NCBI GenBank assembly: GCA_000002445.1
Contig: CP000071.1
Span: 2,304,001 to 2,368,000 of the forward strand
DNA length: 64,000 bases
Origin: Trypanosoma brucei
Lineage: Eukaryota
Reading direction: 5' to 3'
Shown here in pieces: positions 5,492-40,966 of the stretch. Within the stretch, counting starts at the first letter, position 1. Each line of letters opens with the position of its first letter. Below the pieces are notes generated by a model that did not search any database, was not told the DNA's origin, and was given only the letters and a program-made list of their open reading frames with translations. A program made the position numbers and the translations under genes.

Positions 5492-5506
5492 GTCACTTGT
5501 GTGTAA

Positions 5507-18500: not shown

Positions 18501-19139
18501 GAGTTTGAGCGGCAGCGTGCGGAAGATGATGGGGATTATGTTCCACCCACTGGCCATCTTGACCCTGATGTTTACAGTCGGTTGTGGAATGGACTGCGAG
18601 TGCGTGTTGGAATCCACGCCGGGTTGTGTGATATTCGGCATGATGAAGTGACGAAAGGATATGACTTTTACGGTCGTACATCGAATATGGCAGCACGGAC
18701 TGAGAGCATTGCTAATGGCGGGCAGGTGCTGTTGACACGTTCGACATACCTTTCATTGAGTACTTCGGAGCGTGAGCAATTAAATGTGACTGCATTGGGT
18801 GATGTGCCATTGCGTGGTGTACCCAAACCTGTGGAGATGTACCAATTGAATGCGGTACCCGGAAGGACATTTACTACACTGCGACTTGACCATGAGGTTG
18901 CTGATGACGAAGATACGAGTGTTTCTTGCAGTGATGGGAGTTCCATTGGTGCAGTTCTCAGTGATGCCGCTCATCAGGTTGTTGCTTTTATTGAAGCACT
19001 ACTTGGTGCATTCCCCACTGCGCAGCGTAAGAAATTACTTATGCCATTTTGTAACCGATGGGGAGTTTCGGCACCTTATAATGTTTCTGATACGTGGGAT
19101 GCAACCACGTGCCATAATGTTACAGTCACTTGTGTGTAA
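15586..19139 (+). pseudogene. GRESAG4: Receptor-type adenylate cyclase copy 4, disrupted. A -1 frameshift lies in a homopolymer at ~16610-16616 (ggaaaaaagtggaaac, where the other copies read ggaaaaaaatgggaaac). The C-terminus is replaced by the F-type ending ...TTCHNVTVTCV*. The gene then runs directly into the next copy's splice region with no 3' flank.
   Basis: The ORF track splits the copy into 15442..16671 and 16668..19139 in different frames. The unit length here is 3688 bp, against ~4970 elsewhere. Confidence 0.8.
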
Positions 19140-22200: not shown

Positions 22201-23068
22201 GCAGCGTGCGGAAGATGATGGGGATTATGTTCCACCCACTGGCCATCTTGACCCTGATGTTTACAGTCGGTTGTGGAATGGACTGCGAGTGCGTGTTGGA
22301 ATCCACACCGGGTTGTGTGATATTCGGCATGATGAAGTGACGAAAGGATATGACTTTTACGGTCGTACATCGAATATGGCAGCACGGGCTGAGAGCATTG
22401 CTAATGGCGGGCAGGTGCTGTTGACACGTTCGACATACCTTTCATTGAGTACTTCGGAGCGTGAGCAATTAAATGTGACTGCATTGGGTGATGTGCCATT
22501 GCGTGGTGTACCCAAACCTGTGGAGATGTACCAATTGAATGCGGTACCCGGAAGGACATTTACTACACTGCGACTTGACCGTCGAATTATTGATGAAGAT
22601 ACGAGTGTTTCTTGCAGTGATGGGAGTTCCATTGGTGCAGTTCTCAGTGATGCCGCTTATCAGGTTGTTGCTTGTGTTGAAGCACTACTTGGTGCATTCC
22701 CTACTGCGCAGCGTAAGAAATTACTTATGCCATTTTGTAACCGATGGGGAGTTTCGGCGCCTCGTAATGTTTCTGATACGTGGGATGCAACCACGTGCCG
22801 TAATGTCACTCGCCTGCTTGCCGCGAAGGTTGGTCGTGTTGTGGATTTTGGGACGAAGAATACTCATGACAGTGTACAATCCTTTGATAGACGCTCCAGC
22901 ACGTCCCGTCCCCTCTTAAATGCTGTTTCTGAGGAGTGTAGTTTAGCTTCAACTTCCTCCTGTATTCAATCCAGCTGCAGTGTTGTGTACATGATGAATG
23001 GGTCAGATGATGATACCAGCAAATGTTCCCCTAAGCATTGTAATATGTGTCCATTATTGCCAGAATAA
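19274..23068 (+). CDS. GRESAG4: Receptor-type adenylate cyclase, copy 5 (1264 aa). The N-terminal patch is a beta/alpha/beta mosaic. The tail carries F-type patches (LDRRIIDEDTS, AAYQ, SAPRNV).
   Basis: ORF 19130..23068, with the first ATG at 19274. Confidence 0.9.
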   Translation: MASFMRLVTPLGAAVACSHLLMVVLPLLLLIPGLCADKDCNSSSVTVRVYNLLYGSDVSKAIYEPVIAGFNASLHAHNDDLPANVCIEVEHVHARSDEDYVSYLKNKIDGDAAVQNKSELPIVLGPFGDWETRNISSELEELKVVAFSPFTGSSDVRVWKKNLYFLTASPIAQVLALIRYAVSQLRLQRLGFMYLKGVFYGDKEYKLTLKVMSIMGRKLCGVFELDSSTDGRASDDDFEAAWKRFAPTMPQGVIVFGSPIEDTKRFLLKFLGSNELRGAYILIPSMLQYVIKNSWMKKLAVKNFVPERVILTGLTPLANDNEYIAVRKFQTDMEKYLETNGKLNGHNYEKGHFYQHSTDGELMVHGWITGEVLWRTLGSRELLCNRTAYMNSLYNQRRYVIDDLVIGDFGGECEGKAGQRGAACKCNQGGNVVYMKRMGTDRNLHPVKEGVVTLASSRCYTNLLQLYAPLNGIMFRLEDNPLAQRITEEYRDGASLVVGKGQLGQGDRFFLHELNSTSSATKHNMLEEVKERVVTAVFGVVDDALLSMTDMTFIDPIPLSPRLKHPGRNVLHLSPTIEQQIFVMVERVVVPNSWGSVHAIVRSSDARGIKSVLRKTFWALGGSLGAFDEVTDGESVKSLLPHSGFVLVIGLTEADITAIAEHLDNHREVRVFVLFFDVALLYSEFVKVFKKHPQAAERLLFATSLPHWADNNTTSETVQEFHRDVGNESKWTPLALLGYATARAMESVVLQMGRVNSEELINTIFSQSVIVADDMWYGPFEDSCSNSRWSSAKDCIVNYGATHISVWSMARVLNPSVPPVSGVATPSIRYYKDGLNMTEEEFIGTIVGTILCLIALVLIVMLMRKCMRGDTRDNENAPKELTDPVTLIFTDIESSTAQWAAHPELMPDAVATHHRLIRTLISKYGCYEVKTVGDSFMIACKSPFAATQLACDLQRCFLEHDWKTDVFDTSYREFERQRAEDDGDYVPPTGHLDPDVYSRLWNGLRVRVGIHTGLCDIRHDEVTKGYDFYGRTSNMAARAESIANGGQVLLTRSTYLSLSTSEREQLNVTALGDVPLRGVPKPVEMYQLNAVPGRTFTTLRLDRRIIDEDTSVSCSDGSSIGAVLSDAAYQVVACVEALLGAFPTAQRKKLLMPFCNRWGVSAPRNVSDTWDATTCRNVTRLLAAKVGRVVDFGTKNTHDSVQSFDRRSSTSRPLLNAVSEECSLASTSSCIQSSCSVVYMMNGSDDDTSKCSPKHCNMCPLLPE

Positions 23069-23825: not shown

Positions 23826-24091
23826 TCGGAAGGACATTTACTACACTGCGACTTGACCATGAGGTTGCTGATGACGAAGATACGAGTGTTTCTTGCAGTG
23901 ATGGGAGTTCCATTGGTGCAGTTCTCAGTGATGCCGCTCATCAGGCCGTTGCTTTTATTGAAGCACTACTTGGTGCATTCCCTACTGCGCAGCGTAAGAA
24001 ATTACTTATGCCATTTTGTAACCGATGGGGAGTTTCGGCACCTTATAATGTTTCTGATACGTGGGATGCAACCACGTGCCATAATGTTACA
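23826..24091 (+). pseudogene. F fragment upstream of copy 6.
   Basis: ORF 23807..24106. Confidence 0.75.
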
Positions 24092-24240: not shown

Positions 24241-27200
24241 ATGGCTTCCTTCATGCGTCTTGTTACTCCACTTGGCGCTGCAGTGGCTTGCAGTCATCTC
24301 CTCATGGTTGTGTTACCGCTGCTGTTACTTATTCCTGGTTTATGTGCTGATAAAGACTGTAACAGTAGCAGTGTAACGGTGAGGGTGTATAATTTGTTGT
24401 ACAGCTTTAAGATATCAAGTAAAATCTATGAACCCGTCATTGCTGGTTTCAATGCCTCGCTACATGCGCATAATGATGATTTGCCGGCAAATGTGTGCAT
24501 AGAGGTCGAACATGTTCATGCCAGAAGCGATGAGGATTACGTCTCATATTTAAAGAATAAAATTGATGGAGATGCTGCTGTACAAAATAAGAGTGAACTG
24601 CCCATTGTGCTGGGACCTTTTGGTGATGTGACTACTCTCCATCTCACCAGGGAACTTGAGAAGTTTGAAATAGTGGCCTTTTCTCCCTTTACTGGATCTT
24701 CGGATGTGCGTGTGTGGAAAAAGAACCTGTACTATCTTACGGCATCGCCTGTTGCACAGGTGCTTGCACTAATTCGTTATGCAGTGAGTCAATTGAGGTT
24801 TCAGCGACTGGGTTTTATGTACCTGAAGGGTGTGTTTTATGGCGATAAGGAGTATAAGCTGACACTTAAGGTAATGTCGATTATGGGCCGTAAATTGTGC
24901 GGTGTTTTCGAATTAGACAGCTCTACTGATGGAAGGGCTTCTGATGATGATTTTGAGGCTGCATGGAAAAGGTTTGCTCCCACGATGCCACAAGGTGTAA
25001 TTGTGTTTGGTTCGCCAATTGAGGATACGAAGAGGTTCCTGATGAAGTTTTTAGGGAGCAATGAATTGAGAGGTGCTTATATATTAATTCCTTCCATGCT
25101 TCAATATGTTATCAAAAACAGTTGGGTGAAGGAGTTGGCCGTAAAGAATTTTGTGCCTGAGAGAGTGATACTGACGGGTCCGAGTCCACTTGCAAATGAT
25201 AATGAATACATAGCAGTACGGAAGTTTCAGACTGATATGGAGAAGTACCTGGAAACAAATGGGAAACTTAATGGTCACAATTATGAAAAGGGTCACTTTT
25301 ACCAGCACAGTACTGACGGAGAGTTGATGGTGCACGGATGGATCACAGGCGAGGTCTTGTGGCGTACACTGGGAAGTCGTGAATTACTGTGCAACCGTAC
25401 AGCTTACATGAACTCTCTGTACAACCAGCGTCGGTATGTTATCGATGATCTTGTGATTGGTGATTTTGGTGGTGAATGTGAGGGGAAGGCTGGTCAGCGT
25501 GGAGCTGCATGCAAATGTAATCAAGGTGGAAATGTTGTTTACATGAAGAGGATGGGAACTGATCGGAATCTACATCCTGTGAAGGAGGGTGTAGTGACTC
25601 TCGCTTCATCACGCTGCTATACGAATCTCTTACAACTGTATGCCCCATTGAATGGTATAATGTTTCGACTGGAAGACAATCCATTGGCGCAGCGGATTAC
25701 AGAGGAATATCGCGATGGCGCCTCCCCCGTTGTTGGAAAGGGCCAATTGGGTCAAGGTGATCGCTTCTTTTTGCATGAACTGAATTCGACATCGAGTGCG
25801 ACAAAGCACAACATGTTAGAGGAGGTTAAAGAGCGTGTTGTGACGGCCGTGTTCGGTGTTGTGGATGACGCGCTACTGTCGATGACAGATATGACATTTA
25901 TTGATCCCATTCCTCTCAGTCCCAGGTTGAAACACCCCGGAAGGAATGTGTTGCATTTGTCTCCAACAATTGAGCAGCAGATTTTTGTAATGGTGGAGCG
26001 TGTTGTGGTTCCGAATTCCTGGGGGAGTGTGCATGCCATTGTTCGCAGTAGTGATGCACGTGGAATAAAATCTGTTCTTCGAAAGACTTTTTGGGCACTT
26101 GGTGGGTCGCTGGGTGCTTTCGACGAAGTTACCGACGGTGAAAGTGTGAAGAGTTTGTTACCGCATAGCGGTTTCGTTCTCGTTATTGGTCTAACTGAAG
26201 CTGATATTACTGCAATTGCTGAGCATCTTGACAATCACAGGGAAGTGCGTGTATTTGTGTTATTCTTCGATGTGGCACTGCTGTACAGTGAGTTTGTGAA
26301 GGTATTCAAAAAGCATCCGCAAGCTGCCGAGCGGTTACTATTCGCAACAAGCCTACCACACTGGGCAGACAACAATACGACATCCGAGACGGTTCAGGAA
26401 TTTCACAGGGACGTGGGGAATGAGAGTAAATGGACTCCACTGGCGCTACTTGGGTACGCGACTGCACGTGCAATGGAAAGTGTTGTGTTGCAAATGGGGC
26501 GTGTGAACTCAGAAGAGCTTATCAACACTATATTCAGTCAGTCTGTAATTGTAGCGGATGACATGTGGTATGGACCCTTTGAGGACAGTTGTTCCAATAG
26601 CCGCTGGTCATCAGCGAAAGACTGCATTGTGAATTACGGTGCGACACATATTTCCGTGTGGTCCATGGCTCGTGTGTTGAATCCTTCCGTACCTCCTGTT
26701 AGTGGAGTAGCAACACCATCAATACGTTACTACAAAGATGGATTGAATATGACTGAGGAAGAATTTATTGGCACAATTGTGGGTACCATTTTGTGTTTGA
26801 TAGCACTTGTGCTGATAGTAATGCTTATGCGGAAATGTATGCGTGGGGATACTCGCGATAACGAGAACGCACCAAAAGAATTGACAGACCCCGTAACGCT
26901 AATATTCACTGACATCGAGAGCAGCACTGCGCAGTGGGCAGCACACCCTGAGCTTATGCCTGATGCCGTTGCAACACATCACCGCCTAATTCGCACATTG
27001 ATTTCCAAGTATGGATGCTATGAAGTGAAGACTGTTGGAGATTCTTTTATGATTGCATGCAAGAGCCCTTTCGCTGCTGCGCAATTAGCGTGTGACCTGC
27101 AGCGGTGCTTTTTAGAACATGATTGGAAGACTGATGTGTTTGATACGTCTTATCGTGAGTTTGAGCGGCAGCGTGCGGAAGATGATGGGGATTATGTTCC

Positions 27201-28044
27201 ACCCACTGGCCATCTTGACCCTGATGTTTACAGTCGGTTGTGGAATGGACTGCGAGTGCGTGTTGGAATCCACACCGGGTTGTGTGATATTCGGCATGAT
27301 GAAGTGACGAAAGGATATGACTTTTACGGTCGTACATCGAATATGGCAGCACGGACTGAGAGCATTGCTAATGGCGGGCAGGTGCTGTTGACACGTTCGA
27401 CATACCTTTCATTGAGTACTTCGGAGCGTGAGCAATTAAATGTGACTGCATTGGGTGATGTGCCATTGCGTGGTGTACCCAAACCTGTGGAGATGTACCA
27501 ATTGAATGCGGTACCCGGAAGGACATTTACTACACTGCGACTTGACCATGAGGTTGCTGATGACGAAGATACGAGTGTTTCTTGCAGTGATGGGAGTTCC
27601 ATTGGTGCAGTTCTCAGTGATGCCGCTCATCAGGTTGTTGCTTTTATTGAAGCACTACTTGGTGCATTCCCTACTGCGCAGCGTAAGAAATTACTTATGC
27701 CATTTTGTACCCGATGGGGAGTTTCGTTACCTTATAATGTTTCTGATACGTGGGATGCAACCACGTGCCGTAATGTCACTCGCCTGCTTGCCGCGAGGGT
27801 TGGTCGTGTTGTGGATTTTGGGACGAAGAATACTCATGACAGTGTACAATCCTTTGATAGACGCTCGGGAACTTTCCCACCTGGATTGGTTGCCTCTGTT
27901 CCTGAGGAGTGTAGTTTAGCTTCAACTTCCTCCTGTATTCAATCCAGCTGCAGTGTTGTGTACATGATGAATGGGTCAGATGATGATGATACCAGCAAAT
28001 ATTCCCCTAAGCATTGTAATATGTGTCCGTTATTGCCAGAATAA
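24241..28044 (+). CDS. GRESAG4: Receptor-type adenylate cyclase, copy 6 (1267 aa). The N-terminal patch is of the alpha type.
   Basis: ORF 24097..28044, with the first ATG at 24241. Confidence 0.9.
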   Translation: MASFMRLVTPLGAAVACSHLLMVVLPLLLLIPGLCADKDCNSSSVTVRVYNLLYSFKISSKIYEPVIAGFNASLHAHNDDLPANVCIEVEHVHARSDEDYVSYLKNKIDGDAAVQNKSELPIVLGPFGDVTTLHLTRELEKFEIVAFSPFTGSSDVRVWKKNLYYLTASPVAQVLALIRYAVSQLRFQRLGFMYLKGVFYGDKEYKLTLKVMSIMGRKLCGVFELDSSTDGRASDDDFEAAWKRFAPTMPQGVIVFGSPIEDTKRFLMKFLGSNELRGAYILIPSMLQYVIKNSWVKELAVKNFVPERVILTGPSPLANDNEYIAVRKFQTDMEKYLETNGKLNGHNYEKGHFYQHSTDGELMVHGWITGEVLWRTLGSRELLCNRTAYMNSLYNQRRYVIDDLVIGDFGGECEGKAGQRGAACKCNQGGNVVYMKRMGTDRNLHPVKEGVVTLASSRCYTNLLQLYAPLNGIMFRLEDNPLAQRITEEYRDGASPVVGKGQLGQGDRFFLHELNSTSSATKHNMLEEVKERVVTAVFGVVDDALLSMTDMTFIDPIPLSPRLKHPGRNVLHLSPTIEQQIFVMVERVVVPNSWGSVHAIVRSSDARGIKSVLRKTFWALGGSLGAFDEVTDGESVKSLLPHSGFVLVIGLTEADITAIAEHLDNHREVRVFVLFFDVALLYSEFVKVFKKHPQAAERLLFATSLPHWADNNTTSETVQEFHRDVGNESKWTPLALLGYATARAMESVVLQMGRVNSEELINTIFSQSVIVADDMWYGPFEDSCSNSRWSSAKDCIVNYGATHISVWSMARVLNPSVPPVSGVATPSIRYYKDGLNMTEEEFIGTIVGTILCLIALVLIVMLMRKCMRGDTRDNENAPKELTDPVTLIFTDIESSTAQWAAHPELMPDAVATHHRLIRTLISKYGCYEVKTVGDSFMIACKSPFAAAQLACDLQRCFLEHDWKTDVFDTSYREFERQRAEDDGDYVPPTGHLDPDVYSRLWNGLRVRVGIHTGLCDIRHDEVTKGYDFYGRTSNMAARTESIANGGQVLLTRSTYLSLSTSEREQLNVTALGDVPLRGVPKPVEMYQLNAVPGRTFTTLRLDHEVADDEDTSVSCSDGSSIGAVLSDAAHQVVAFIEALLGAFPTAQRKKLLMPFCTRWGVSLPYNVSDTWDATTCRNVTRLLAARVGRVVDFGTKNTHDSVQSFDRRSGTFPPGLVASVPEECSLASTSSCIQSSCSVVYMMNGSDDDDTSKYSPKHCNMCPLLPE

Positions 28045-28786
28045 TTGGATAAGGTTCAATACATGATCTGTGCATGTTTCTTTTTAGATTCATTGTTTTC
28101 GATAATATTCTTTTTAGGTTGTCTCTATTACTATGTATGCGCAGCATCCTCCTCACATGTTGGGTGCTTTGTGTTTTTTTGGTAATTGATAAATTTGTTT
28201 CAGGACGTTGCCAACCTATGGTAATAATAAGTATATGGGTAATAGTTTTTTTCCTTTATTATGCGATACCGGAGCATGCATATCACTGCTGATGCTCCGG
28301 CCCATAGTTTATGATATGTGTTCTTTTCCACCCCCGGTGAGCGGGTGTCAGGCAAAATGCACTGATATCCTCTTTTGGTGGGAATTTATAAGTTACCATG
28401 CTGGACAGTTGAGCCACCGTATTATTAACTTCTAATGTTGCTGTTGGTACAACATATCAGTGGTGTTCACTTTGCTTTCCTTTACTATTATATTGAAATG
28501 GATTATTGTTTTTTTCTTTTTGTGTGCATATATCTGTGTTTCGATATACCGTCACCACTCTACCACGTTGATGGATTGGGGAATGGCTACTGATTGATTA
28601 ATGCATGGTTTTTTGTCACTTTAATAACAACATTGTATTCCATGATGGCTTTCAGCAACTGACCCTTGTGTGTAATTTCCTGTTTATTTCCCTCTACTGA
28701 CACAAATCTTTTTTACTAATATCTTTTCCTTCTTTTATCACTTTCCAGGACTTGACAAGCCAAATATGTGAGACTGGCTATTGCAT
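28045..28786. repeat. Intergenic 3'-flank element A. The 5' part is a fourth variant and the 3' part is conserved.
   Basis: It shares the 9677-9708-type segment (gcgataccggagcatgcatatcactgctgatgctccggcc) with 9445..10200, and shares the conserved 3' half with all the spacers. Confidence 0.7.
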
Positions 28787-29052
28787 TCGGAAGGACATTT
28801 ACTACATTGCGACTGGACCGTCGAATTATTGATGACGAAGATACGAGTGTTTCTTGCAGTGATGGGAGTTCCATTGGTGCAGTTCTCAGTGATGCCGCTT
28901 ATCAGGCCGTTGCTTTTATTGAAGCACTACTTGGTGCATTCCCTACTGCGCAGCGTAAGAAATTACTTATGCCATTTTGTAACCGATGGGGAGTTTCGGC
29001 GCCTTATAATGTTTCTGATACGTGGGATGCAACCACGTGCCATAATGTTACA
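28787..29052 (+). pseudogene. F fragment upstream of copy 7. It carries the LDRRIIDDED variant.
   Basis: ORF 28768..29067. Confidence 0.75.
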
Positions 29053-29067
29053 GTCACTTGTGTGTAA

Positions 29068-29201
29068 TTGAATTTCAACTGCACTCTCTTCTGCTCCCTT
29101 TCGTGCCCTTACTTTATTGTTGTCTATTATCATTATTATCATTATTCTCTCATTTCTCTCCTTTAAGACTTACGAATTCCTCAAGTCAAGTCACCAGTGT
29201 T
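29068..29201 (+). promoter_or_regulatory. Polypyrimidine/AG putative trans-splice acceptor region of copy 7.
   Basis: It is homologous to 5507..5640. Confidence 0.5.
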
Positions 29202-32200
29202 ATGGCTTCCTTCATGCGTCTTGTTACTCCACTTGGCGCTGCAGTGGCTTGCAGTCATCTCCTCATGGTTGTGTTACCGCTGCTGTTACTTATTCCTGGT
29301 TTATGTGCTGATAAAGACTGTAACAGCAGTGGTAAAGTGTCAGTGAAAGTGCACAGTTTGTTGTACAGCTCTAAGATATCAAGTAAAATCTATGAACCCG
29401 TCATTGCTGGTTTCAATGCCTCGCTACATGCGCATAATGATGATTTACCGGCAAATGTGTGCACAAAGGTTGAGCTCGTGCACGTTGTGAGTGGTGGGAA
29501 TCATATGAATACTATTGAGACGATGATTGGGGAGGGTGAAGAAAATAGTAATGAACTGCCCATTGTGCTGGGACCTTTTGGTGATGAGACTACTCTCCAT
29601 CTCACCTCGAAACTTGAGAAGTTAAAGGTAGTGGCCTTTTCTCCCTTTACTGGATCTTCGGATGTGCGTGTGTGGAAAAAGAATCTGTACTTCCTTACGG
29701 CATCGCCTGTTGCAGAGGTGCTTGCACTAATTCGTTATGCTGTGAGTCAATTGAGGCTTCAGCGACTGGGTTTTATGTACCTGAAGGGTGTGTTTTATGG
29801 CGATAAGGAGTACGAGCTGACACTTAAGGTAATGTCGATTATGGGCCGTAAATTGTGCGGTGTTTTCGAATTAGACAGCTCTACTGATAGAAGGGCTTCT
29901 GATGATGATTTTGAGGCTGCATGGAAAAGGTTTGCTCCCACGATGCCACAAGGTGTAATTGTGTTTGGTTCGCCAATTGAGGATACGAAGAGGTTCCTGA
30001 ATAGGTTATTGGGGAGCAATGAATTGAGAGGTGCTTATATATTAATTCCTTCCATGCTTCAATATGTTATCAAAAACAGTTGGCTGGATGATCTGCAATT
30101 ATTTAATTTGAATTTCTCGAAAGTGATAGTTGCGGGTCTGACTCCACTTGCAAATGATAATGAATACATAGCGGTACAGAAGTTTCAGACTGATATGGGG
30201 AAGTACCTGGGAAATAATGGAAAACTTAATGGTCACAATTATGAAAAGGGTCACTTCTACCAGCACAGTACTGACGGAGAATTGATGCTGCACGGATGGA
30301 TTGTGGGCGAGGTCTTGTGGCGTACACTGGGAAGTCGTGAATTACTGTGCAACCGTACAACTTACATGAACTCTCTGTACAACCAGCGTCGGTATGTTAT
30401 CGATGATCTTGTGATTGGTGATTTTGGTGGTGAATGTGAGGGGAAGGCTGGTCAGCGTGGAGCTGCATGCAAATGTAATCAAGGTGGAAATGTTGTTTAC
30501 ATGAAGAGGATGGGAACTGATCGGAATCTACATCCTGTGAAGGAGGGTGTAGTGACTCTCGCTTCATCACGCTGCTATACGAATCTCTTACAACTGTATG
30601 CCCCATTGAATGGTATAATGTTTCGACTAGAAGACAATCCATTGGCGCAGCGGATTACAGAGGAATATCGCGATGGCGCCTCCCTCGTTGTTGGAAAGGG
30701 CCAATTGGGTCAAGGTGATCGCTTCTTTTTGCATGAACTGAATTCGACATCGAGTGCGACAAAGCACAACATGTTAGAGGAGGTTAAAGAGCGTGTTGTG
30801 ACGGCTGTGTTCGGTGTTGTGGATGATGCGCTACTGTCGATGACAGATATGACATTTATTGATCCCATTCCTCTCAGTCCCAGGTTGAAACACCCCGGAA
30901 GGAATGCGTTGCATTTGTCTCCAACAATTGAGCAGCAGATTTTTGTTATAGTTAAAAACTTTGTTGTTAAAAATTCTTCAAGAAGAGTGCGTGCCATTGT
31001 TCGCGGTGGTGATGCACGTGGAATAAAATCTGTGCTACGAAGGACACTTTGGGTTTTTGGAAAGTTTTTGAGGGCAGTTGACACTATTAATGATGGTGAA
31101 AGTGTGAGGGGGATGTTGCATCGCAGTCGTGATTGTTTCGTTTTCGGTCTAACTGAAGCTGATATTACTGCAATTGCTGAGCATCTTGACAATCACAGGA
31201 AAGTGCGTGTATTTGTGTCGTTCTTCGATGTGGCACTGCTGTACAGTGAGTTTGTGAAGGTATTCAAAAAGCATCCGCAAGCTGCCGAGCGGTTACTATT
31301 CGCAACAAGCCTACCACACTGGGCAGACAACAATACGACATCCGAGACGGTTCAGGAATTTCACAGGGACGTGGGGATTCAGAGTAAATGGACTCCACTG
31401 GCGCTGCTTGGGTATGCGACTGCACGTGCAATGGAAAGTGTTGTGTCGCGAATGGGGCGTGTGAACTCAGAAGAGCTTATCAACGCCATATTCAGTCAGT
31501 CTGTAATTGTAGCGGATGACATGTGGTATGGACCCTTTGAGGACAGTTGCGCTAGCGGGTCCTCAGTGAAGGATTGCGCTGTGAATTACGGTGCGACACA
31601 TATTTCCGTGTGGTCCATGGCTCGTGTGTTGAATCCTTCCGTACCTCCTGTTAGCCAACCCGAAAGTCCATCGATACATTATTATAGTAATGGATTGAAT
31701 ATGACTGAGGAAGAATTTATTGGCACAATTGTGGGTACCATTTTGTGTTTGATAGCACTTGTGCTGATAGTAACAGTTATACGGAGGTTAATGCGTCTTA
31801 ACGCGCGGGATAACGAGAACGCACCAAAAGAATTGACAGACCCCGTAACGCTAATATTCACTGACATCGAGAGCAGCACTGCGCAGTGGGCAGCACACCC
31901 TGAGCTTATGCCTGATGCCGTTGCAACACATCACCGCCTAATTCGCACATTGATTTCCAAGTATGGATGCTATGAAGTGAAGACTGTTGGAGATTCTTTT
32001 ATGATTGCATGCAAGAGCCCTTTCGCTGCTACGCAATTAGCATGTGACCTGCAACGATGCTTTTTAGAACATGATTGGAAGACTGATGTGTTTGATACGT
32101 CTTATCGTGAGTTTGAGCGGCAGCGTGCGGAAGATGATGGGGATTATGTTCCACCCACTGGCCATCTTGACCCTGATGTTTACAGTCGGTTGTGGAATGG

Positions 32201-32954
32201 ACTGCGAGTGCGTGTTGGAATCCACACCGGGTTGTGTGATATTCGGCATGATGAAGTGACGAAAGGATATGACTACTACGGTCGTACATCGAATATGGCA
32301 GCACGGACTGAGAGCATTGCTAATGGGGGGCAGGTGCTGTTCACACGTTCGACATACCTTTCATTGAGTACTTCGGAGCGTGAGCAATTAAATGTGACTG
32401 CATTGGGTGATGTGCCACTGCGTGGTGTGCCGGAACCTGTGGAGATGTACCAATTGAATGCGGTACCCGGAAGGACATTCGCGGCACTGCGACTTGACTG
32501 TCAAATTATTGATGAAGATGATACGAGTGGTGCTTGCAGTGAAGCAAGTTCTGTTGGGATTGGTCTTGGTGATGCCGCTCAACAGGTTGCTGCTTGCATT
32601 GAAGCACTACTTGGTGCATTCCCCACTGCGCAGCGTAAGAAATTACTTATGCCATTTTGTAACCGATGGGGAGTTTCGGCGCCTCGCAATGTTTCTGATA
32701 CGTGGGATGATACCACGTGCCATGCTGTTACTCGCCTGCTTGCCGCGAAGGTTGGTCGTGTTGTGGATTTTGGGACGCGGACTGGTATTGGTAGTTTAGG
32801 CGCTAGCATAAGACGTGGTTCCTTTATATCACCAATGGCGTCTCGTATTGATATTCGTGGTAGTTCTTTTGCTCCTAGTGATATTGATGTTGGTGTGAGA
32901 ACGGTTCATTTTATTGGTCTACCAGATGATGATGCTGGAAGGTGTTCTCATTAG
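29202..32954 (+). CDS. GRESAG4: Receptor-type adenylate cyclase, copy 7 (1250 aa). This is a divergent edge paralog with a distinct N-terminal patch, a replaced ectodomain segment, a replaced juxtamembrane segment and a unique C-terminal tail (...GTRTGIGSLGASIRRGSFISPMASRIDIRGSSFAPSDIDVGVRTVHFIGLPDDDAGRCSH*).
   Basis: ORF 29058..32954, with the first ATG at 29202. The cyclase catalytic core is conserved. The flank after 32954 starts like an A element for ~170 bp and then becomes unique sequence. Confidence 0.88.
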   Translation: MASFMRLVTPLGAAVACSHLLMVVLPLLLLIPGLCADKDCNSSGKVSVKVHSLLYSSKISSKIYEPVIAGFNASLHAHNDDLPANVCTKVELVHVVSGGNHMNTIETMIGEGEENSNELPIVLGPFGDETTLHLTSKLEKLKVVAFSPFTGSSDVRVWKKNLYFLTASPVAEVLALIRYAVSQLRLQRLGFMYLKGVFYGDKEYELTLKVMSIMGRKLCGVFELDSSTDRRASDDDFEAAWKRFAPTMPQGVIVFGSPIEDTKRFLNRLLGSNELRGAYILIPSMLQYVIKNSWLDDLQLFNLNFSKVIVAGLTPLANDNEYIAVQKFQTDMGKYLGNNGKLNGHNYEKGHFYQHSTDGELMLHGWIVGEVLWRTLGSRELLCNRTTYMNSLYNQRRYVIDDLVIGDFGGECEGKAGQRGAACKCNQGGNVVYMKRMGTDRNLHPVKEGVVTLASSRCYTNLLQLYAPLNGIMFRLEDNPLAQRITEEYRDGASLVVGKGQLGQGDRFFLHELNSTSSATKHNMLEEVKERVVTAVFGVVDDALLSMTDMTFIDPIPLSPRLKHPGRNALHLSPTIEQQIFVIVKNFVVKNSSRRVRAIVRGGDARGIKSVLRRTLWVFGKFLRAVDTINDGESVRGMLHRSRDCFVFGLTEADITAIAEHLDNHRKVRVFVSFFDVALLYSEFVKVFKKHPQAAERLLFATSLPHWADNNTTSETVQEFHRDVGIQSKWTPLALLGYATARAMESVVSRMGRVNSEELINAIFSQSVIVADDMWYGPFEDSCASGSSVKDCAVNYGATHISVWSMARVLNPSVPPVSQPESPSIHYYSNGLNMTEEEFIGTIVGTILCLIALVLIVTVIRRLMRLNARDNENAPKELTDPVTLIFTDIESSTAQWAAHPELMPDAVATHHRLIRTLISKYGCYEVKTVGDSFMIACKSPFAATQLACDLQRCFLEHDWKTDVFDTSYREFERQRAEDDGDYVPPTGHLDPDVYSRLWNGLRVRVGIHTGLCDIRHDEVTKGYDYYGRTSNMAARTESIANGGQVLFTRSTYLSLSTSEREQLNVTALGDVPLRGVPEPVEMYQLNAVPGRTFAALRLDCQIIDEDDTSGACSEASSVGIGLGDAAQQVAACIEALLGAFPTAQRKKLLMPFCNRWGVSAPRNVSDTWDDTTCHAVTRLLAAKVGRVVDFGTRTGIGSLGASIRRGSFISPMASRIDIRGSSFAPSDIDVGVRTVHFIGLPDDDAGRCSH

Positions 32955-34137
32955 CATTGAAATATGTGTCCATTATTGCCAGAATAATTGGATAAGGTTC
33001 AATACATGATCTGTGCATGTTTCTTTTTAGATTCATTGTTTTCGATAATATTCGTTTTAGGTTGCCTTTACTACTTCTATGTATACACAGCGTCCTTCTC
33101 ACATGTTGGATGCTCCATATATCTTTGGTTTGGAATAATGTTGCCTTGAGGGCTGTTTGGTGTTTGACGTATGTGGTTGTGTGTTGTCTTATTGTTGTTT
33201 CGTTTTTTGCGTTATTTGAGCTTTTTGAATACGTCTTGTGATCTTTTGTTTTCCCTCTTTTTTGTGTTATATTTTTCTTTATGTTCCTTTTTCATGATAT
33301 AGGCGATGTACCCAATATTTTAACTTGTTGTTTAATGCTTTACTGAAGACATGTAGTGCAGGTTTCTTACCGTTTGCTGCGGGTTTCCGTCACTGCAGGG
33401 TGGAGGTGTTTGCCTTGTTTAATGTGTTTATTTTTACTTAACTTTCTCCTTAAATTCGGTATTTTAAAAAACCTATGTATGAGTTGCCCTGGTACTGATA
33501 ACTTCTTTTCGCGTTGTACTTTCTTGTGTGATTAACGGTTTTTATTATTGTTTTCTGTGACATCTTGCCTGTTCTCTTTCTCTTTTATTTTACCGTTAGG
33601 TTCCTTAAGGCATATGATGGAGAGAGTTGTACGCTGTGCTCTTTCGGTTGGAACTGGTTGATTGAATGTTGATCGTATTTTTTTGAGTGGGCTTCGTTTT
33701 GCCACTGGAATGCGAACGATAGCCTTCTGGGTTTGTTACACCGGCTTCATTCGTATGCGTGCTGATGTCTAATTGTTTTTTTTTAAATTTGTTCTTACAA
33801 GTAGATGAGGTTGGTTCGTGTGGCTATTAATGATGGAATGTGTGTGTGTGTTACGGCGATTTGTCGTAATTGTGGTCGGTGGCGTATATGAACCTGTGGG
33901 GTTGCGTCAGCGGAGCGTCTGCCTCAGCGCGTGGCCCCATTGTGGCAGCAACAGCAAAAATTAATATAGTCACTGTTGTTACATCCATATATGTATTTAT
34001 GTATTGTGCTGTTGTAAGTGTGGAGACTAGCCATTTTTTTAGTTGATGTACCTTCTGGAGTAGTTGTTTAACCTATTTTTTAATTCTCATTTATTGTCTA
34101 GTTCTTGTTTTGTTTTGTTGCGTCATTAGAGTTTCCG

Positions 34138-37100
34138 ATGAACCCAATATATACGCTGGTCGAATTGAGGGGCTGGAGTGATATACACGAAGTGAGACAA
34201 CGATGCTCGGGACGCGATGTTGCGCAGCCACTTCTGGGGTTGCAGCTCTCGGATGCTGAGATGCTAAAATGGGTTGAGAGTAAAGAGCGCCAAATCTACT
34301 CGGCACTCGCACGGCGTTTTCTCCACCTAATTCGTGAAAATCCTTCGAGCACTGAGTTTGTGGAGATCTCAGGTGAGTTTACTCAAGTGGTGATGGACTC
34401 GGTTATTGACCCGTTGGCGAAGATTTGTAAACTACTGCCCGCTCGTGGTGAACCATTGCAAGGGAACGACAGCAAGTTTTGCGTGAGTAGCATGAATAAG
34501 ATGTCTTCACCATCACTATCGGAAGGGGGCAGTCCGCTCGTTGTGAAGCGTGTAGGAATAAAAGGGGGGATAAAGTTTTATAGTGGTGTTACACGGTGGG
34601 AATGGATGGATCTCTTTTCTAACAAGGAGGCTGCTGTGGGGAAAGGGTGTGTATTGAAAACATTGCTGGGGGAGACGCCATCATTTGAACAATGGAATGC
34701 CTCCACGCTTGCGGCGCTGCGGCGTGTTGGTGACGTTGTGAGTGAGGTGCAAAAGGATTTGATGTCGGCACTAAATCGTCTTGCTGCTGGACGCTTTGGA
34801 CGTGTGATCGATGAAGTTAGCGGTAAAGGGTGCAATTCGCTGTGGACAGAATTAGTTTTCATGGTAGAGGATGCCTTCGATGATGTTGTGACGGATGCTG
34901 TAGAGCTCATTTTGTGGAGTATACATCAGTGTTTCTTAGAAGGTGGTGTGTTTGCAGGTCATCCGATGTTTTCACTCAAGGCGTTCTGGCAGTATAGTAG
35001 CTGTAGCGCTGCACTGAGCCCAGCGCCCTCCGAGGTTCACGAACGCCTAATGAACCGTGTGAAGAAGGAGCTCATTTGGAATATTGTGCCGGAGTTTGAC
35101 CTCAACCAAATGATCAAGCGCCAGGTGTCAGGTGGTCCGCGACTGCGAAGGGCTGCGCTGCGCAACAGGCTGTTGGAAGAAGGGAAAATGAAGCGAAGGT
35201 GGGATGCGATTCACTTCGCGGCAAGCCAGAGGTGCGACGAGCTTCAGGAGTCGCTGCAGGCTTTAACTGAATCGTATAGCTTTTACTTTTCCAGTGAGAA
35301 CGAGTTCCCTCAGATGAACTACCAGCGGCTGTGGGAGGTGCGCGAAGGATTGCGAAGTTCTTTAACACACCCCGTGTTGCCTGTTGGCTCAGGTGTATTT
35401 GTGGTACACAGGGATTCTCTCCACCAGGTAGCCGCGGACAAATTGGAGGTCGCCTTCAAGAAGGTTGTAGATGAGAGTAAGTGTGCTGATGCACTTAGTC
35501 GGGAAACGATAACTGCAGCCCGTATGAAGGCGCTAGCAGCGGAATCCGATTTGGAGTTCTATTCAAACTCCTTGCGCGCGCGGATGGATGCGTTCAGCCG
35601 ACGGCGGAAGGTTCAAGGAAAGTATGATAGGGGGCTAGATCCGTTTGCACACGTCACACGATTAATCAACGAGCAGAGAAATGACGAGGATCGTCTACGT
35701 GGCCAGTTTACAATACTGGTAAAGAAGAACCCCATACAGGTTGACTCGGCTGTGGTTGCCCCCACCGATACCGCTACTGATAATGGCTTAGCTTCTTTTT
35801 CAGTGACTGATGCAGCGTCTACGGCATCTTCTGCCAACACTGAGAGGAAGCGATCCTTACCCAAACATGTATCTTATAGGGATGCGCGTACTTTGAAACC
35901 TCCTGTTTCCTTAAACGACGCCAATAATGTAGATTCTGGGGGAAGTGGGGCACTGCCACCTGCGAAACCCTCAGCAGTTTACGCAGCCGGTATACAGCGA
36001 CCGCAATCCAACGAACACGTGGCGAAAGTAGGTGGTAAGAACTGCAGATTCAAACCGGGGCAGGGAATCTTGGAATCGTCCAAGGAGAGCGCGAGTTTTC
36101 AGCGGGCTGACCAACGCACAGTGAAAGCGCCTAATGAAAATGACACTATCGTTACCCCATTGGAGTTGATCAAAGAAGAGCATCACACGGCTATAGGGGA
36201 CGCCGGGCATGACGTAGAATTGCTGGAGCCAACAGACTCTGCAGCTGCTCCCGTGTGCCCATTTCCGTCGCATGAAGAGAAGGAGGCACCACGTCCCATA
36301 TCAGAGTTTTTCCCCCTTTTCCCCAAGCAGTGCCCTCCAGTTTCCCAACAAGATGCCGATGTTGATGCTGCTGAAGCACCACTGCAGTCGCAGCGGAGGG
36401 AGGACCACATGATATCCTCTCCGGAAGTTGCACAACCGATCATTCAGCACACGTGCCCGGATGGCGCCGAAGAATGTTCTGCTGCGTCTGAGAAATCACC
36501 ATTAGCTGTGAAGGGGGCCGTAGCTTCCGCACCACAGGAGGGGTGTGATGCACCGGAGGTTGCAGCTTCTGCCTTAAAGGACGAGGAGCGCAAAGAATAC
36601 CTTCGAAAGCTGGAGCTGCTTCACTTCAACGTGGGTGCCGTTGAGGCATCAGAAGGTCGCGTTCGCGCCATCAAGAAGTTGTTACCGTTTTTGCCTGACA
36701 TGCCTTGTGAGGGCGTTTTCATTGAGGACATAAACTTATCGGACTCCCGAATAGAAACGTCGATGAACCGCTTGCGAGCAGTGCGGGGAAGTGCAACAGT
36801 GCTGCGCAACTACAGGGACATCGCACTTGTTGAGGACTCAGTCAGCGCGATCATAGAGTCGGTTGCTGAAGAGTTGGCTACATTGACCCTTCGCATGCTT
36901 TTGCGCTTTCCCTTTCTAGAGGGTCGCATTTGTGGCGTGCTCCTGGGGAATCTTCAGGTTTTGGAGGTGGATGACGAGTTCCAGTCGCTCATAACTCTTT
37001 ATCGCTCCTCCCAGAAGGGGCAGGGCCCCACTGAAAGTATTGAGCACTGCCTGCGCGTTCGTGCCCGCGCGCTGGCTAATGAGTGTCCATACGTTGTCAC

Positions 37101-39381
37101 CCCCGACCGTTACGAGGGTCACATGATTACACTACAGAAAGATGCTGCTGATGCTGTGACAGGTGAAAGGCCACACAATGATAGCCTTCAGGAGACGACG
37201 CGACAAGGGTCCGCCGAAGGGGCACTTAAACGGCAACAGGGAAGCAGGGCGTCAGTTTCCACTGCGGAAGTGCCAAAGCTCACGCAGCGAACGATATCAC
37301 CAGAGGTTCCTGTACCGTCACCACCTTCTTTACCAGTTGAGAAAACTGCTGAGACTGCGCCGTCGCTTCGCTTTGTTCGTAATATTCATGTGCACGAACA
37401 GCCCCCACTGAGGTGCGAGGATGAGGTTCCCCTGGCTACCGATAGTAACTCCAGGAGCCACAAGGCAGTTCCCAGCTTTACTTCCGTTGTCCAAACGAGA
37501 AGAGTGCTTTCCCCTGGCAATCCACAATCTTCCGTTGGAGAACAAAGTTGCAAAACTGATCAATCAGTTATGAAATCCAATGTTTCAGTGGAGGGGGATG
37601 CCAACACTCGAAAGAACTCCGCGCAGACCCGCGCTGCTGTGTCTTCAACGAGTAGTATGCGGGAAAATAGGGTGCTAACAAATGCGCAGTCACATGGGTG
37701 GTCCGTGCATTCGATGGGCTCGGCGAAGAGCGATAATCTGAATTCAACTGCGCTCAGCAAAGAAAGGCATACTCCGGATGCACAGTTGTTGGCAGTAAGG
37801 AAGGAGTGTACCGTTCCTACTCGCGACTCGCGTGGCAGTGGACCACCACGTGAGAAAGGAGAGTGTAAAGATAGCGGTGAGTCTGAATCCACAAAAACGA
37901 GCTTTTTTGACACGATTGAGAAGGGTCTGATGGATGAGCGAATGCATTTGCAGGAGTTGGAGACCATTCTTCGACAAGTTGTTAAGGGCTGTGAAGCCGT
38001 GCCGAACATCGCTAAACCAAAATCTCCAGGGCTTAGAGCAGCGAAGTCTACGAGCGTACTGCCGTGTGTGTCAGCTGCGCCGGGCGTGGTGGAATGTGGC
38101 CCTGAGTCTTCGAATACATCACCCTTAACAGAGAAGACTTCAGCATCATCACAGTCAAAATGGGCGTCACCGTCACCGGCACTACTTGGAAAGGTAAAAA
38201 CGGTGCCAAGACCGCCGTCGACGGGCCGCTTCGTTAGTAGGGCCCCCGTGTCATCCCCTCGCCCAGGTTTAGAGCCTGATGGAAGCATGACGTCGAACCC
38301 ACCACAGGGAACTACGGCTACACGAGGGGAAAGAGAACAAGATGCACGCATGACGGGACGGCGGGCTGGCAGTGATCCCACGTGGTGCAATGTAAGGGAT
38401 ACAAGCAACGCATGTGGGGATGAGTTTGAAAAGCACAAGCAGCGAGGTGATGCCTTTGAGGCTGCGGGTGACACCAACCATACGCTCTCTGGTGATTCCA
38501 ATCAAACTCAACCGTGGCCTAGGAGGAGGCCGGTACCTGATAGCAATGGGTCATGCTTCAAGAGTATCACTGATGCCGTTGTGAAGTCTTCATGGGGAAC
38601 GCTGGGCAGCGAGATGGAACCGGAGAGTGACAAGGCAAAACTTCCTTCTGTTTCAAACACTGCGCAGCGCGGAAAGCTGAACGGGCTCTTCCACAAATCG
38701 CAAACTTCGCAGATCAACAAAATGCCATGGGGACGCTTCACCATCTCGCATAATCCCCCGTCAAACGTTTCGCTCCCCAATGCATTTTCTTCCTCCTACT
38801 CAGCCGATTCATCCCGTATGGATCACGGCAACTCTCCTCCCTTCCCGCAGCTCAGTCCAACGGCCAAATCCGATTCCCCGCCGTGCCGCACGCATGAAAA
38901 CGAGGTGGATGGCCAACTAATGAACTCTGTGGGTCTTCGGCAGCAGTACGTTATCTTCTGCCGCCGAGCGTGTGTGAAACCTAACAGCATGTTGATGCGC
39001 TTATTTCCTGATAAACCCGGCGCCTTCGTTAGTCGCATTGACACCTCTGTGAATTATGTTGGTCCCAAAGGTTTCCTTCCCATCATGCAGGTGCTGCGAC
39101 TCAATGGTGGATTGGAGTATCTCAACTTAAGTCACAACAATTTGGAGAATGATGAAGTGGTGGAGCTTGTTCAGGTGCTGCTGACGGAGTGCGGGGCCTC
39201 CTTATGTTTCTTGGATTTGTCAAACAATCCCATTTCTCTCGTGGGCGGTGCGGCACTGCTGCGGCTCACTCAAATGAGGCCTCTGTTACTAACTGTACAT
39301 GTGAAGGGCACTTTGATTCCTCAACAGCTGTGTCGTAGCATTCAAGAGGCATGTGAGGCTAATGCGGCGGCTGGAGCGTAA
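34138..39381 (+). CDS. Hypothetical protein, 1747 aa, with extensive low-complexity Ser/Pro/Ala-rich regions and C-terminal leucine-rich repeats (LNGGLEYLNLSHNNLENDEVVELVQVLLTECGASLCFLDLSNNPISLVGGAALLRL).
   Basis: A single uninterrupted 5.2-kb ORF (34105..39381). The first in-frame ATG is at 34138 and is preceded by a pyrimidine-rich tract at 34070-34125. The LRR consensus LxxLxLxxNxL is visible in the last ~120 aa. Confidence 0.75.
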   Translation: MNPIYTLVELRGWSDIHEVRQRCSGRDVAQPLLGLQLSDAEMLKWVESKERQIYSALARRFLHLIRENPSSTEFVEISGEFTQVVMDSVIDPLAKICKLLPARGEPLQGNDSKFCVSSMNKMSSPSLSEGGSPLVVKRVGIKGGIKFYSGVTRWEWMDLFSNKEAAVGKGCVLKTLLGETPSFEQWNASTLAALRRVGDVVSEVQKDLMSALNRLAAGRFGRVIDEVSGKGCNSLWTELVFMVEDAFDDVVTDAVELILWSIHQCFLEGGVFAGHPMFSLKAFWQYSSCSAALSPAPSEVHERLMNRVKKELIWNIVPEFDLNQMIKRQVSGGPRLRRAALRNRLLEEGKMKRRWDAIHFAASQRCDELQESLQALTESYSFYFSSENEFPQMNYQRLWEVREGLRSSLTHPVLPVGSGVFVVHRDSLHQVAADKLEVAFKKVVDESKCADALSRETITAARMKALAAESDLEFYSNSLRARMDAFSRRRKVQGKYDRGLDPFAHVTRLINEQRNDEDRLRGQFTILVKKNPIQVDSAVVAPTDTATDNGLASFSVTDAASTASSANTERKRSLPKHVSYRDARTLKPPVSLNDANNVDSGGSGALPPAKPSAVYAAGIQRPQSNEHVAKVGGKNCRFKPGQGILESSKESASFQRADQRTVKAPNENDTIVTPLELIKEEHHTAIGDAGHDVELLEPTDSAAAPVCPFPSHEEKEAPRPISEFFPLFPKQCPPVSQQDADVDAAEAPLQSQRREDHMISSPEVAQPIIQHTCPDGAEECSAASEKSPLAVKGAVASAPQEGCDAPEVAASALKDEERKEYLRKLELLHFNVGAVEASEGRVRAIKKLLPFLPDMPCEGVFIEDINLSDSRIETSMNRLRAVRGSATVLRNYRDIALVEDSVSAIIESVAEELATLTLRMLLRFPFLEGRICGVLLGNLQVLEVDDEFQSLITLYRSSQKGQGPTESIEHCLRVRARALANECPYVVTPDRYEGHMITLQKDAADAVTGERPHNDSLQETTRQGSAEGALKRQQGSRASVSTAEVPKLTQRTISPEVPVPSPPSLPVEKTAETAPSLRFVRNIHVHEQPPLRCEDEVPLATDSNSRSHKAVPSFTSVVQTRRVLSPGNPQSSVGEQSCKTDQSVMKSNVSVEGDANTRKNSAQTRAAVSSTSSMRENRVLTNAQSHGWSVHSMGSAKSDNLNSTALSKERHTPDAQLLAVRKECTVPTRDSRGSGPPREKGECKDSGESESTKTSFFDTIEKGLMDERMHLQELETILRQVVKGCEAVPNIAKPKSPGLRAAKSTSVLPCVSAAPGVVECGPESSNTSPLTEKTSASSQSKWASPSPALLGKVKTVPRPPSTGRFVSRAPVSSPRPGLEPDGSMTSNPPQGTTATRGEREQDARMTGRRAGSDPTWCNVRDTSNACGDEFEKHKQRGDAFEAAGDTNHTLSGDSNQTQPWPRRRPVPDSNGSCFKSITDAVVKSSWGTLGSEMEPESDKAKLPSVSNTAQRGKLNGLFHKSQTSQINKMPWGRFTISHNPPSNVSLPNAFSSSYSADSSRMDHGNSPPFPQLSPTAKSDSPPCRTHENEVDGQLMNSVGLRQQYVIFCRRACVKPNSMLMRLFPDKPGAFVSRIDTSVNYVGPKGFLPIMQVLRLNGGLEYLNLSHNNLENDEVVELVQVLLTECGASLCFLDLSNNPISLVGGAALLRLTQMRPLLLTVHVKGTLIPQQLCRSIQEACEANAAAGA

Positions 39382-40553: not shown

Positions 40554-40966
40554 CAGATAAATGGATGAGTATGGAAACTATGTTTTGTTGCTTCTCCTCG
40601 ATTTACGAGTCGCAGAGGATTTTAAAATTTGTGACTACATTTGTTTTCTTTAAAACTGTTGCTGAGGACGAGGATGGAAGCTAAACATGTACTTGTGGAG
40701 GTTGTTTTCCATTTGTTTGTATCGTCGAACACTTTACTACCTTGCTCGTTGCCATTTATTAATTTTTCTTGTGTTCTGCGCTTACTAAACTGTTACTTTA
40801 TCTTCCTCTTCCTCTTTTACTTTATTTTTTCTGTTCTCAATAAATAAATAAATAAATTGACTCGTAGATTAGGCACGGCTTCGGAAGTGGTATAAGTCGT
40901 TTCTTTCTTTCTTTTCTTTTTTCTGTTGTTTTCATCAACTGGACTGAAAGTGGTGGCGCATTCGTG

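Follow-up and report, generated by a model that had tools for sequence, protein, structure and literature searches.

Island-wise divergence in the last copy of a GRESAG4 adenylate cyclase array on Trypanosoma brucei chromosome 8

Jackson 2007 (PMC1855330) described tandem arrays with 'mixed dynamics' (Tb24, Tb32, Tb82 and Tb113), in which an atypical divergent copy lies at one end, and classed the chromosome 8 array 'Tb80a' as plainly concerted. Tb80a extends from Tb927.8.7860; the array counts 8 copies in T. b. brucei, compared to 4 in T. b. gambiense. Its members are GRESAG4 receptor-type adenylate cyclase genes; such cyclases are many in T. brucei, their ligands are unknown, and the diversification of the family is a live question. 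Here, the last copy of this array is analysed in a stretch of 64,000 nucleotides from chromosome 8 of T. b. brucei TREU927 (contig CP000071.1, positions 2,304,001 to 2,368,000), which is called the window in the following. The coding sequence (CDS) of this copy 7 occupies 29202..32954 of the plus strand, with ATG at 29202 and TAG at 32952-32954, and encodes 1250 amino acids (aa). In an exact-sequence look-up, the protein matched AAZ13553.1 / XP_847619.1 / Q57U51. Going by gene numbering alone, the gene is probably Tb927.8.7940, for which a literature search found no main-text mention by any paper. Both gene and array are already on record, as is the phenomenon in general (Jackson 2007, PMC1855330). 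The map of divergent islands presented here may be unpublished at its present level of detail. It leaves the current understanding unchanged, as an annotation of the gene and an analysis of concerted evolution in the array exist already, and tails that vary at the C-terminus are usual in the family.

Like the arrays with mixed dynamics, Tb80a combines a divergent copy at its end with internal copies that evolve in concert. In those arrays, however, the atypical copies are divergent throughout and their spacers are radically remodelled (PMC1855330), whereas copy 7 is homogenised in its 5' spacer and over most of its CDS. The spacer plus 5' untranslated region (UTR) upstream of copy 7 (28045..29201, plus strand) is of array type and mostly 95-100% identical to the other spacers; the first ~160 nt past the stop codon are 80-100% identical, and the sequence is unique only beyond the array. 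The array copies are alike at synonymous sites and in their spacers, and the paralogs on chromosomes 4 and 7 are 56-59% identical at the protein level. With its siblings AAZ13547-13552, copy 7 shares the domain architecture, the 5' spacer, the signal and transmembrane (TM) segments, a catalytic domain that is 97-98% identical, and 83% of the CDS at a synonymous divergence (dS) of ~0.05. It differs from them by about ten private islands, a shorter, unrelated-looking and disordered tail ending with CSH before the stop, and a private 3' flank after ~33115.

Copy 7 is a gene-conversion mosaic and not a wholesale escapee from homogenisation. Islands that cover 641 of the 3738 aligned nt contain 286 of the 342 copy-7-specific nucleotide differences. 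The longest run without a difference measures 521 nt, compared to a maximum of 134 in 2000 permutations, and the variance-to-mean ratio of difference counts per 60 nt is 10.9, compared to at most 1.5 in the permutations (n = 2000). Windows of 60 nt alternate between 98-100% and 43-65% identity to copies 1 to 6; the near-identical stretches include 30371-30910 and 31865-32464. The dS amounts to 1.36-1.43 in the islands and to 0.054-0.060 in the remainder of copy 7, which is a contrast of ~25-fold; among the internal copies 2 to 6 it is 0.02-0.035. Protein selection cannot yield a 25-fold contrast at synonymous sites, and the contrast points to different coalescence times, that is, to gene conversion. 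The ratio of nonsynonymous divergence (dN) to dS is ~0.33 in the ectodomain island and, as a rough value, ~0.8-0.9 in the tail. The locus thereby shows conversion and divergence at a scale of tens of bases inside one gene, and the pattern is an ordinary product of tandem-array evolution by known processes.

The original prediction held that edge copies of tandem arrays escape homogenisation. For copy 7, such an escape is local and restricted to the islands: homogenisation extends over ~83% of the CDS and over the entire 5' spacer and includes part of the 3' flank, and conversion has reached both sides of the tail. Upstream of the tail island, identity is ~90% up to 32762. Downstream, the array-type 3' flank (32988..33115, plus strand) is 98-100% identical to copies 5 and 6 at 32994-33051 and ~80% over 33052-33111, and the repeat unit ends at ~33115. 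Because near-identical sequence is found on both sides of the tail, the edge position does not explain its survival.

We favour, with a probability of roughly 0.65, the explanation that copy 7 is a functional-looking cyclase and a gene-conversion mosaic of an old, diverged paralog lineage. This lineage would have occupied the 3' end of the array, and conversion with the neighbouring copies would have overwritten it piece by piece, with the result that array-type sequence now makes up ~83% of the CDS as well as the 5' spacer and ~160 nt past the stop. Old sequence would have been left in about ten islands, located in the least constrained, most diverged and family-variable segments. One of these would be the disordered tail, later shortened by an AAG-to-TAG nonsense change, and the end of the array repeat at ~33115 would have given copy 7 its private 3' flank. 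It is general knowledge of homologous recombination that dense mismatches lead to heteroduplex rejection. Dense local mismatches may have ended or rejected heteroduplex tracts and, together with low constraint, allowed the islands to persist. The data directly show the mosaic pattern, the dS contrast, the in-frame homology of the tail, the complete set of domains and the conservation in T. b. equiperdum. The direction and the mechanism of conversion, including heteroduplex rejection, are what we infer, as are any effects on expression or localisation.

The islands, about ten in number, are 27-174 nt long and lie on the plus strand. It had been proposed that copy 7 differs from its neighbours in four places, namely an N-terminal patch, an ectodomain block, the juxtamembrane segment and the tail. 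All four are present where they had been placed, but the islands number at least ten, and those at aa 88-116, 295-311, 783-793, 818-830 and 1100-1127 had been missed. The N-terminal patch (aa 42-52, SGKVSVKVH; 29327..29356), with the sequence SGKVSVKVHSLLY, is indeed present; however, it is nucleotide-identical in the pseudogene copy 4 and is a variant circulating in the array, not a character of copy 7. The island at aa 88-116 (TKVELVHVVSGGNHMNTIETMIGEGEEN; 29464..29549) has ~38% copy-7-specific nucleotide differences, and that at aa 295-311 (LDDLQLFNLNFSKVIVA; 30084..30132) has 51%. The ectodomain island (aa 582-648; 30947..31145) consists of the sub-blocks 30947-30991 and 31034-31145. The corresponding block, as compared over aa 583-655 (nt 30948-31166), reads IVKNFVV...LTEADI in copy 7 and is 56% identical to the array copies without any indels, such that its description as replaced was an overstatement. 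Two pre-TM islands are found at aa 783-793 (31550-31579) and aa 818-830 (QPESPSIHYYSNG; 31655-31689), and the latter also occurs in T. b. equiperdum (P0066). The juxtamembrane island (aa 858-869, TVIRRLMRLNA; 31774..31808) directly follows the TM helix; as had been stated, this segment differs, with VTVIRRLMRLNA in copy 7 versus VMLMRKCMRGDT. The post-catalytic linker island (aa 1100-1127, DCQIIDEDDTSGACSEASSVGIGLG; 32499..32582) is predicted to be disordered. Between these islands the catalytic core is kept, again as proposed, with aa 881-1085 being 97-98% identical to the other copies. In an array that is otherwise unmappable, the unique sequences of the islands and the private 3' flank offer probes, peptides and tagging sites by which copy 7 can be singled out.

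The C-terminal tail island (aa 1193-1250, RTGIGSLG...DDDAGRCSH; 32778..32951) is in frame and contains ~53% copy-7-specific nucleotide differences. For all copies, the last 560 nt were aligned at the nucleotide level together with 260 nt of flank. In this alignment the tail of copy 7 is collinear with the others and requires only 3-nt gaps. Nucleotide identity is high up to 32777, drops to ~45-57% over 32778-32933, and recovers at the GATGATGAT (DDD) run and on into the 3' flank; amino acid identity of the tail to the other copies is 23-26%. The tail had been regarded as unrelated to those of the other copies, ending with ...DDDAGRCSH instead of ...DDDDTSKYSPKHCNMCPLLPE before the stop. The two endings are as described, but the tail is in frame and collinear, and the DDD run and both flanks are kept.

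The stop codon TAG of copy 7 (32952..32954, plus strand) takes the place of AAG, the codon for K of SPKH, in all other copies. It is followed by a relic (32955..32987, plus strand) of the longer frame of copies 2 to 6 (H-C-N-M-C-P-L-L-P-E-stop), which in copy 7 reads ...CAT TGA AAT ATG TGT CCA TTA TTG CCA GAA TAA and whose TAA at 32985-32987 aligns with the stop of copies 2, 3, 5 and 6. The TGC-to-TGA change within the relic, at 32958-32960, is the same as the change that truncates copy 1. By way of this change, an early end after ...SPKH is found in copy 1 (3195-3206), in AAZ13547 and in a gene-less fragment (4440-4460). As the stop is TGA in the copies of the copy 1 type and TAG in copy 7, the last nine residues (CNMCPLLPE) are absent from at least three array proteins via two different stop mutations. 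The array contains three tail types: type A in copies 2, 3, 5 and 6; type B, ~85% identical to type A, in copy 1, AAZ13547 and the fragment 4233-4640; and type C in copy 7 only.

The domains of copy 7 are intact, and judged by its sequence the protein is a functional-looking receptor-type adenylate cyclase. The Pfam domains PF25495 (aa 171-311), PF25493 (aa 465-827) and PF00211 (aa 876-1086; E = 1.3e-39) are recognised with scores equal to those of copy 6. The class III cyclase catalytic domain matches 1FX2 over the whole domain (E = 1.9e-122), and the AlphaFold 2 model has a predicted local distance difference test score (pLDDT) of 80-94 in this region. The catalytic domains of GRESAG4.1 and GRESAG4.3 (1FX2 and 1FX4; E = 1.9e-122 and 8.5e-121, respectively) align with copy 7 from end to end, and the consensus motifs DYYGRT and FAALRLD are present in copy 7 and in both structures. 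These two structures represent different loci, and their constructs end at the catalytic domain and are uninformative on the tail. Adenylate cyclase activity and dimerisation of copy 7 would be expected from the domain identity of 97-98% to its siblings and of ~80% to GRESAG4.1. The ectodomain model (pLDDT 82.5, predicted TM-score (pTM) 0.82) has a type I periplasmic-binding-protein (PBP) fold, and its top matches in Foldseek are binding proteins of the LIVBP type (E = 1e-12); the large extracellular region accordingly comprises two PBP/Venus-flytrap (VFT)-like domains. In this model, the ectodomain island is well folded (pLDDT 81-96) as a beta-alpha unit within the PBP/VFT-like domain proximal to the membrane. 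A single TM helix connects the ectodomain and the catalytic domain, with the hydrophobic stretch FIGTIVGTILCLIALVLIV at aa 839-857 and a modelled helix at 836-859. In the AlphaFold model of the cytosolic part, the catalytic domain is predicted with confidence, and so is a three-helix unit (aa 1124-1195) that is conserved across copies. The island at aa 1100-1127 falls on a disordered linker, and the tail (aa 1193-1250), which has a pLDDT of 32-34 and lacks secondary structure, corresponds exactly to the tail island.

The relatives of copy 7 bear on the age and the source of the islands. The tail of copy 7, at 23% identity, is no closer to that of copy 6 than either tail is to those of the paralogs on chromosomes 4 and 7 (31-39%). 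The post-catalytic linker of copy 7 is 56-61% identical to the paralogs on chromosomes 4, 6 and 7, compared to 47% for copy 6. Furthermore, copy 7 has the family-consensus motifs FAALRLD and DYYGRT, whereas copies 1 to 6 have the derived FTTLRLD and DFYGRT. When fixed differences were polarised with nine outgroups, the array agreed with the outgroups at 51 positions and copy 7 at 33, and 76 were ambiguous. Both lineages have changed, because derived states fall on copy 7 and on the array alike; a simple retention of ancestral sequence by copy 7 is thereby ruled out as the sole account. No close match to any island was found in a protein set of 56 representatives of family clusters (formed at 90% identity) and the listed cluster members. 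When copy 7 itself and the orthologue of T. b. equiperdum are set aside, the array copies match best, with 23-83% identity.

The representative of the 90% cluster of copy 7 is the T. b. equiperdum fragment RHW71105.1 (393 aa), which has 30 of the 33 copy-7-specific residues over aa 806-1163. It differs from copy 7 by eight residues, of which four are of array type. Two of these four (A1130V and I1133V) are located at an edge of the post-catalytic island, which would be expected were conversion still eroding the islands. The C-terminus of RHW71105.1 corresponds to the +1 frame of the copy 7 DNA and extends into the tail island by its first codons; the change of frame is either genuine or due to an indel in long reads. 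The 56 representatives include no copy-7-type protein of T. b. gambiense or T. congolense, and the T. b. equiperdum match spans only a subspecies-level distance.

A second mosaic is AAZ13522.1 (P0080), a singleton GRESAG4 gene ~25 genes upstream on chromosome 8, with the T. b. gambiense orthologue CBH13844.1 (P0002). At the protein level AAZ13522 is 100% identical to the array over aa ~463-720 and near-identical in the catalytic domain, and its N-terminus, pre-TM segment and tail are 14-60% identical. The protein comparison suggests that the array and this dispersed paralog have undergone ectopic gene conversion over a long range. AAZ13522 and CBH13844 thus resemble copy 7 in being mosaic, and the LDCQIID motif is common to them and copy 7 only. 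The pattern is complementary, however: AAZ13522 is of array type exactly at the ectodomain island of copy 7 and far more divergent in the N-terminus, the pre-TM segment and the tail.

Several observations weigh against the view of copy 7 as the overwritten remainder of an old lineage. Positions within the islands are more variable family-wide than the others (entropy of 2.30 versus 1.58 bits in 41 non-array family members, p = 2e-18), but aa 1-30, 331-360 and 451-540 are equally variable in the family and yet fully homogenised in copy 7. Family variability alone therefore does not predict the survival of an island, and the notion that the islands comprise all family-variable segments is only partly true. 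The evidence on the age of the islands comes from proteins, which were compared with representatives of clusters at 90% identity. At ~25% identity the alignment of the tail is uncertain, hence its dS and dN are only rough. Finally, AAZ13522 is 100% array-type across the ectodomain block, where the adjacent copy 7 is 47-63% identical. The presence of the array-type block in a distant singleton and its absence from copy 7 may reflect selection or chance instead of a barrier that is mechanical only.

This last point is compatible with the main alternative, that copy 7 is a selectively maintained, distinct receptor isoform, which we consider doubtful. The ligand-binding lobe (aa 582-648) and 3' UTR that are private to copy 7 would then be protected, along with its juxtamembrane segment and disordered tail, from a conversion process able to overwrite a gene ~25 genes away, and they might serve stage regulation or flagellar sub-localisation. 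If true, the ligand specificity, the expression stage or the flagellar subdomain of copy 7 would be unlike those of its six neighbours. The ectodomain island would fit such a role, as it is well folded (pLDDT 81-96) and under purifying selection (dN/dS 0.33), and conversion across this block has reached AAZ13522 but not copy 7. The retention of 30 of 33 specific residues in T. b. equiperdum and the unique 3' flank beyond ~33115 point in the same direction. In contrast, the tail has a high, albeit rough, dN/dS (~0.8-0.9) and is predicted to be disordered. Moreover, T. b. equiperdum is a very close relative, such that shared residues are a weak sign of constraint, and its copy shows a change of frame before the tail.

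Published work on the C-terminal region can be read in both directions. It had been stated from general knowledge that this region influences the flagellar sub-localisation of T. brucei cyclases, and the literature agrees: a C-terminal signal of ~45 aa affects the sub-flagellar targeting of some isoforms (review PMC6027212), and the array member Tb927.8.7920 is located at the flagellar tip (PMC7719234). On the other hand, ESAG4 lacking its last 112 residues targets the flagellum normally (PMC6027212), and a literature search found no expression or localisation data on copy 7. The ACP1-type targeting signal (Saada 2014, via PMC6027212) resembles the tail of copy 7 in being a variable segment past the catalytic domain, with ~45 aa compared to the 58-aa island. 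However, it has no defined motif (PMC6027212), and the tail of copy 7 is at most 20-35% similar to that of any other paralog. Variable C-terminal regions are a stated feature of the cyclase family (PMC6027212), and putative phosphosites in the C-terminal region have been reported in the literature. A functional role of the tail or of the unique 3' flank is possible. The unique, T-rich 3' flank (33116..34104, plus strand) has no homology to the internal spacers and presumably supplies most of the 3' UTR of copy 7 together with the processing signals of the next gene. Judged from trypanosome biology, this flank is a more likely route to differential expression than the tail.

An improbable alternative is a recent ectopic import, in which short conversion tracts from other GRESAG4 or ESAG4 genes would have pasted the islands into an ordinary array copy. 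Ectopic conversion is known in the family, as illustrated by the block of AAZ13522 that is 100% identical to the array copies, and the LDCQIID motif is common only to copy 7 and AAZ13522/CBH13844. Nevertheless, no donor was found among the 56 cluster representatives and the listed members, the best matches being the array copies themselves (23-83%), and the number of independent imports, all of them from unseen donors, would have to be at least ten.

It is very improbable that copy 7 is a chimera mis-assembled from reads of different family members. Tandem arrays are liable to mis-assembly. However, the independently assembled RHW71105.1 carries the pre-TM, juxtamembrane and post-catalytic islands together, with 30 of the 33 specific residues, and its shifted-frame end matches the first tail codons of copy 7. 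Moreover, the open reading frame (ORF) of copy 7 is intact over all island junctions. Because the T. b. equiperdum fragment has these residues, copy 7 is a paralog and not an assembly artefact. The weakest alternative, a simple indel by which the tail would be an array-type tail in a shifted frame, has next to no chance and no supporting evidence, as the alignment needs only 3-nt gaps at ~50% mismatch over 171 nt, tblastn with the tail peptide yields only in-frame collinear matches to the other tails in the window (29-34% identity, E 3e-4 to 0.6), sensitive blastn (blastn-short) of the 171-nt tail block finds only a flanking 15-mer and 12-mer elsewhere in the window, and three-frame translation reveals stop codons in both alternative frames. 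With the failure of any frameshifted match to the other tails, the proposal that copy 7 is a distinct paralog rather than the product of an indel holds.

Each inter-copy spacer of the array contains an F fragment, a 264-nt non-coding copy of the 3' segment of the CDS that ends ~150 nt before the next ATG. The F fragments are located at 3970-4232, 5228-5490, 10202-10465, 15172-15435, 18860-19123, 23827-24090 and 28788-29051 and are 92-99% identical to the CDS of copies 1 to 6; they constitute an internal substrate for recombination between CDS and spacer. The fragment upstream of copy 7 (28788..29051, plus strand) is 92-95% identical to the CDS of copies 1 to 6 and 85% identical to the segment 32468-32731 of copy 7. 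The 3' phylogeny suggested with the original prediction was calculated as a neighbour-joining tree of this 264-nt segment. It sets the CDS of copy 7 apart, at 14-17% from all others, and the remaining CDS copies and F fragments differ by only 1-8% from one another. The copy-7-like patches GACCGTCGAATTATTGAT and TCGGCGCCTCGT occur in copy 5 and in F fragments, including the one upstream of copy 7, and therefore indicate patch-wise exchange. Variants are shared patch-wise by copy 7 with copy 4, and by copy 7 with copy 5 and the F fragments, and inspection of identity windows revealed abrupt breakpoints.

The array copies upstream of copy 7 lie on the plus strand. Copy 1 (12-3206) is clipped by the start of the window, and is followed by copy 2 (5641-9444, AAZ13549.1), copy 3 (10616-14413), the pseudogene copy 4 (15586-19139), copy 5 (19274-23068) and copy 6 (24241-28044, AAZ13552.1). 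These neighbouring copies correspond to AAZ13548-13552, and AAZ13547 is the copy upstream. The N-terminal ~130 aa (29290-29650 and the equivalents in copies 2 to 6) are variable in patches, such as SSKISSKIY versus GSDVSKAIY and ARSDEDYVSYLK versus HDGNVIEVGNIN. These variants combine differently among the internal copies, so that in this region the whole array is mosaic and not copy 7 alone.

Copy 4 has a 1-nt deletion (GGG to GG), and the frameshifted region ends at an in-frame stop at 16671. Its 3' end is fused at 19123, exactly at the end of the F-fragment homology, to the upstream sequence of the next unit; the tail, the stop codon and the spacer are gone. This looks like a deletion by recombination of the 3' segment of the CDS with an F fragment. 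The spacer between copies 1 and 2 (3207-5640) comprises 2434 nt instead of the usual ~1172 nt and holds an extra unit without a gene. This unit contains a 3' UTR and upstream sequence as well as an F fragment, which continues into a copy-1-type tail and stop (4233-4640, 98% identical to copy 1). To judge from this arrangement, the unit looks like one that lost its whole CDS by recombination between F fragment and CDS.

Downstream of the array, the long ORFs 34105-39381 and 40964-42307 have no match in Pfam. The ORF 43985-45469 is annotated as 'T. brucei spp.-specific protein', and a vacuolar pyrophosphatase at 47748-50228 is identical to AAZ13557.1. In the literature, the gene of the vacuolar pyrophosphatase is Tb927.8.7980 and the array is placed between Tb927.8.7860 and Tb927.8.7950. 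The 1758-aa ORF downstream of the array is probably Tb927.8.7950, a member of a retained paralog pair of chromosomes 4 and 8 with signs of non-neutral evolution (Jackson 2007, PMC1855330).

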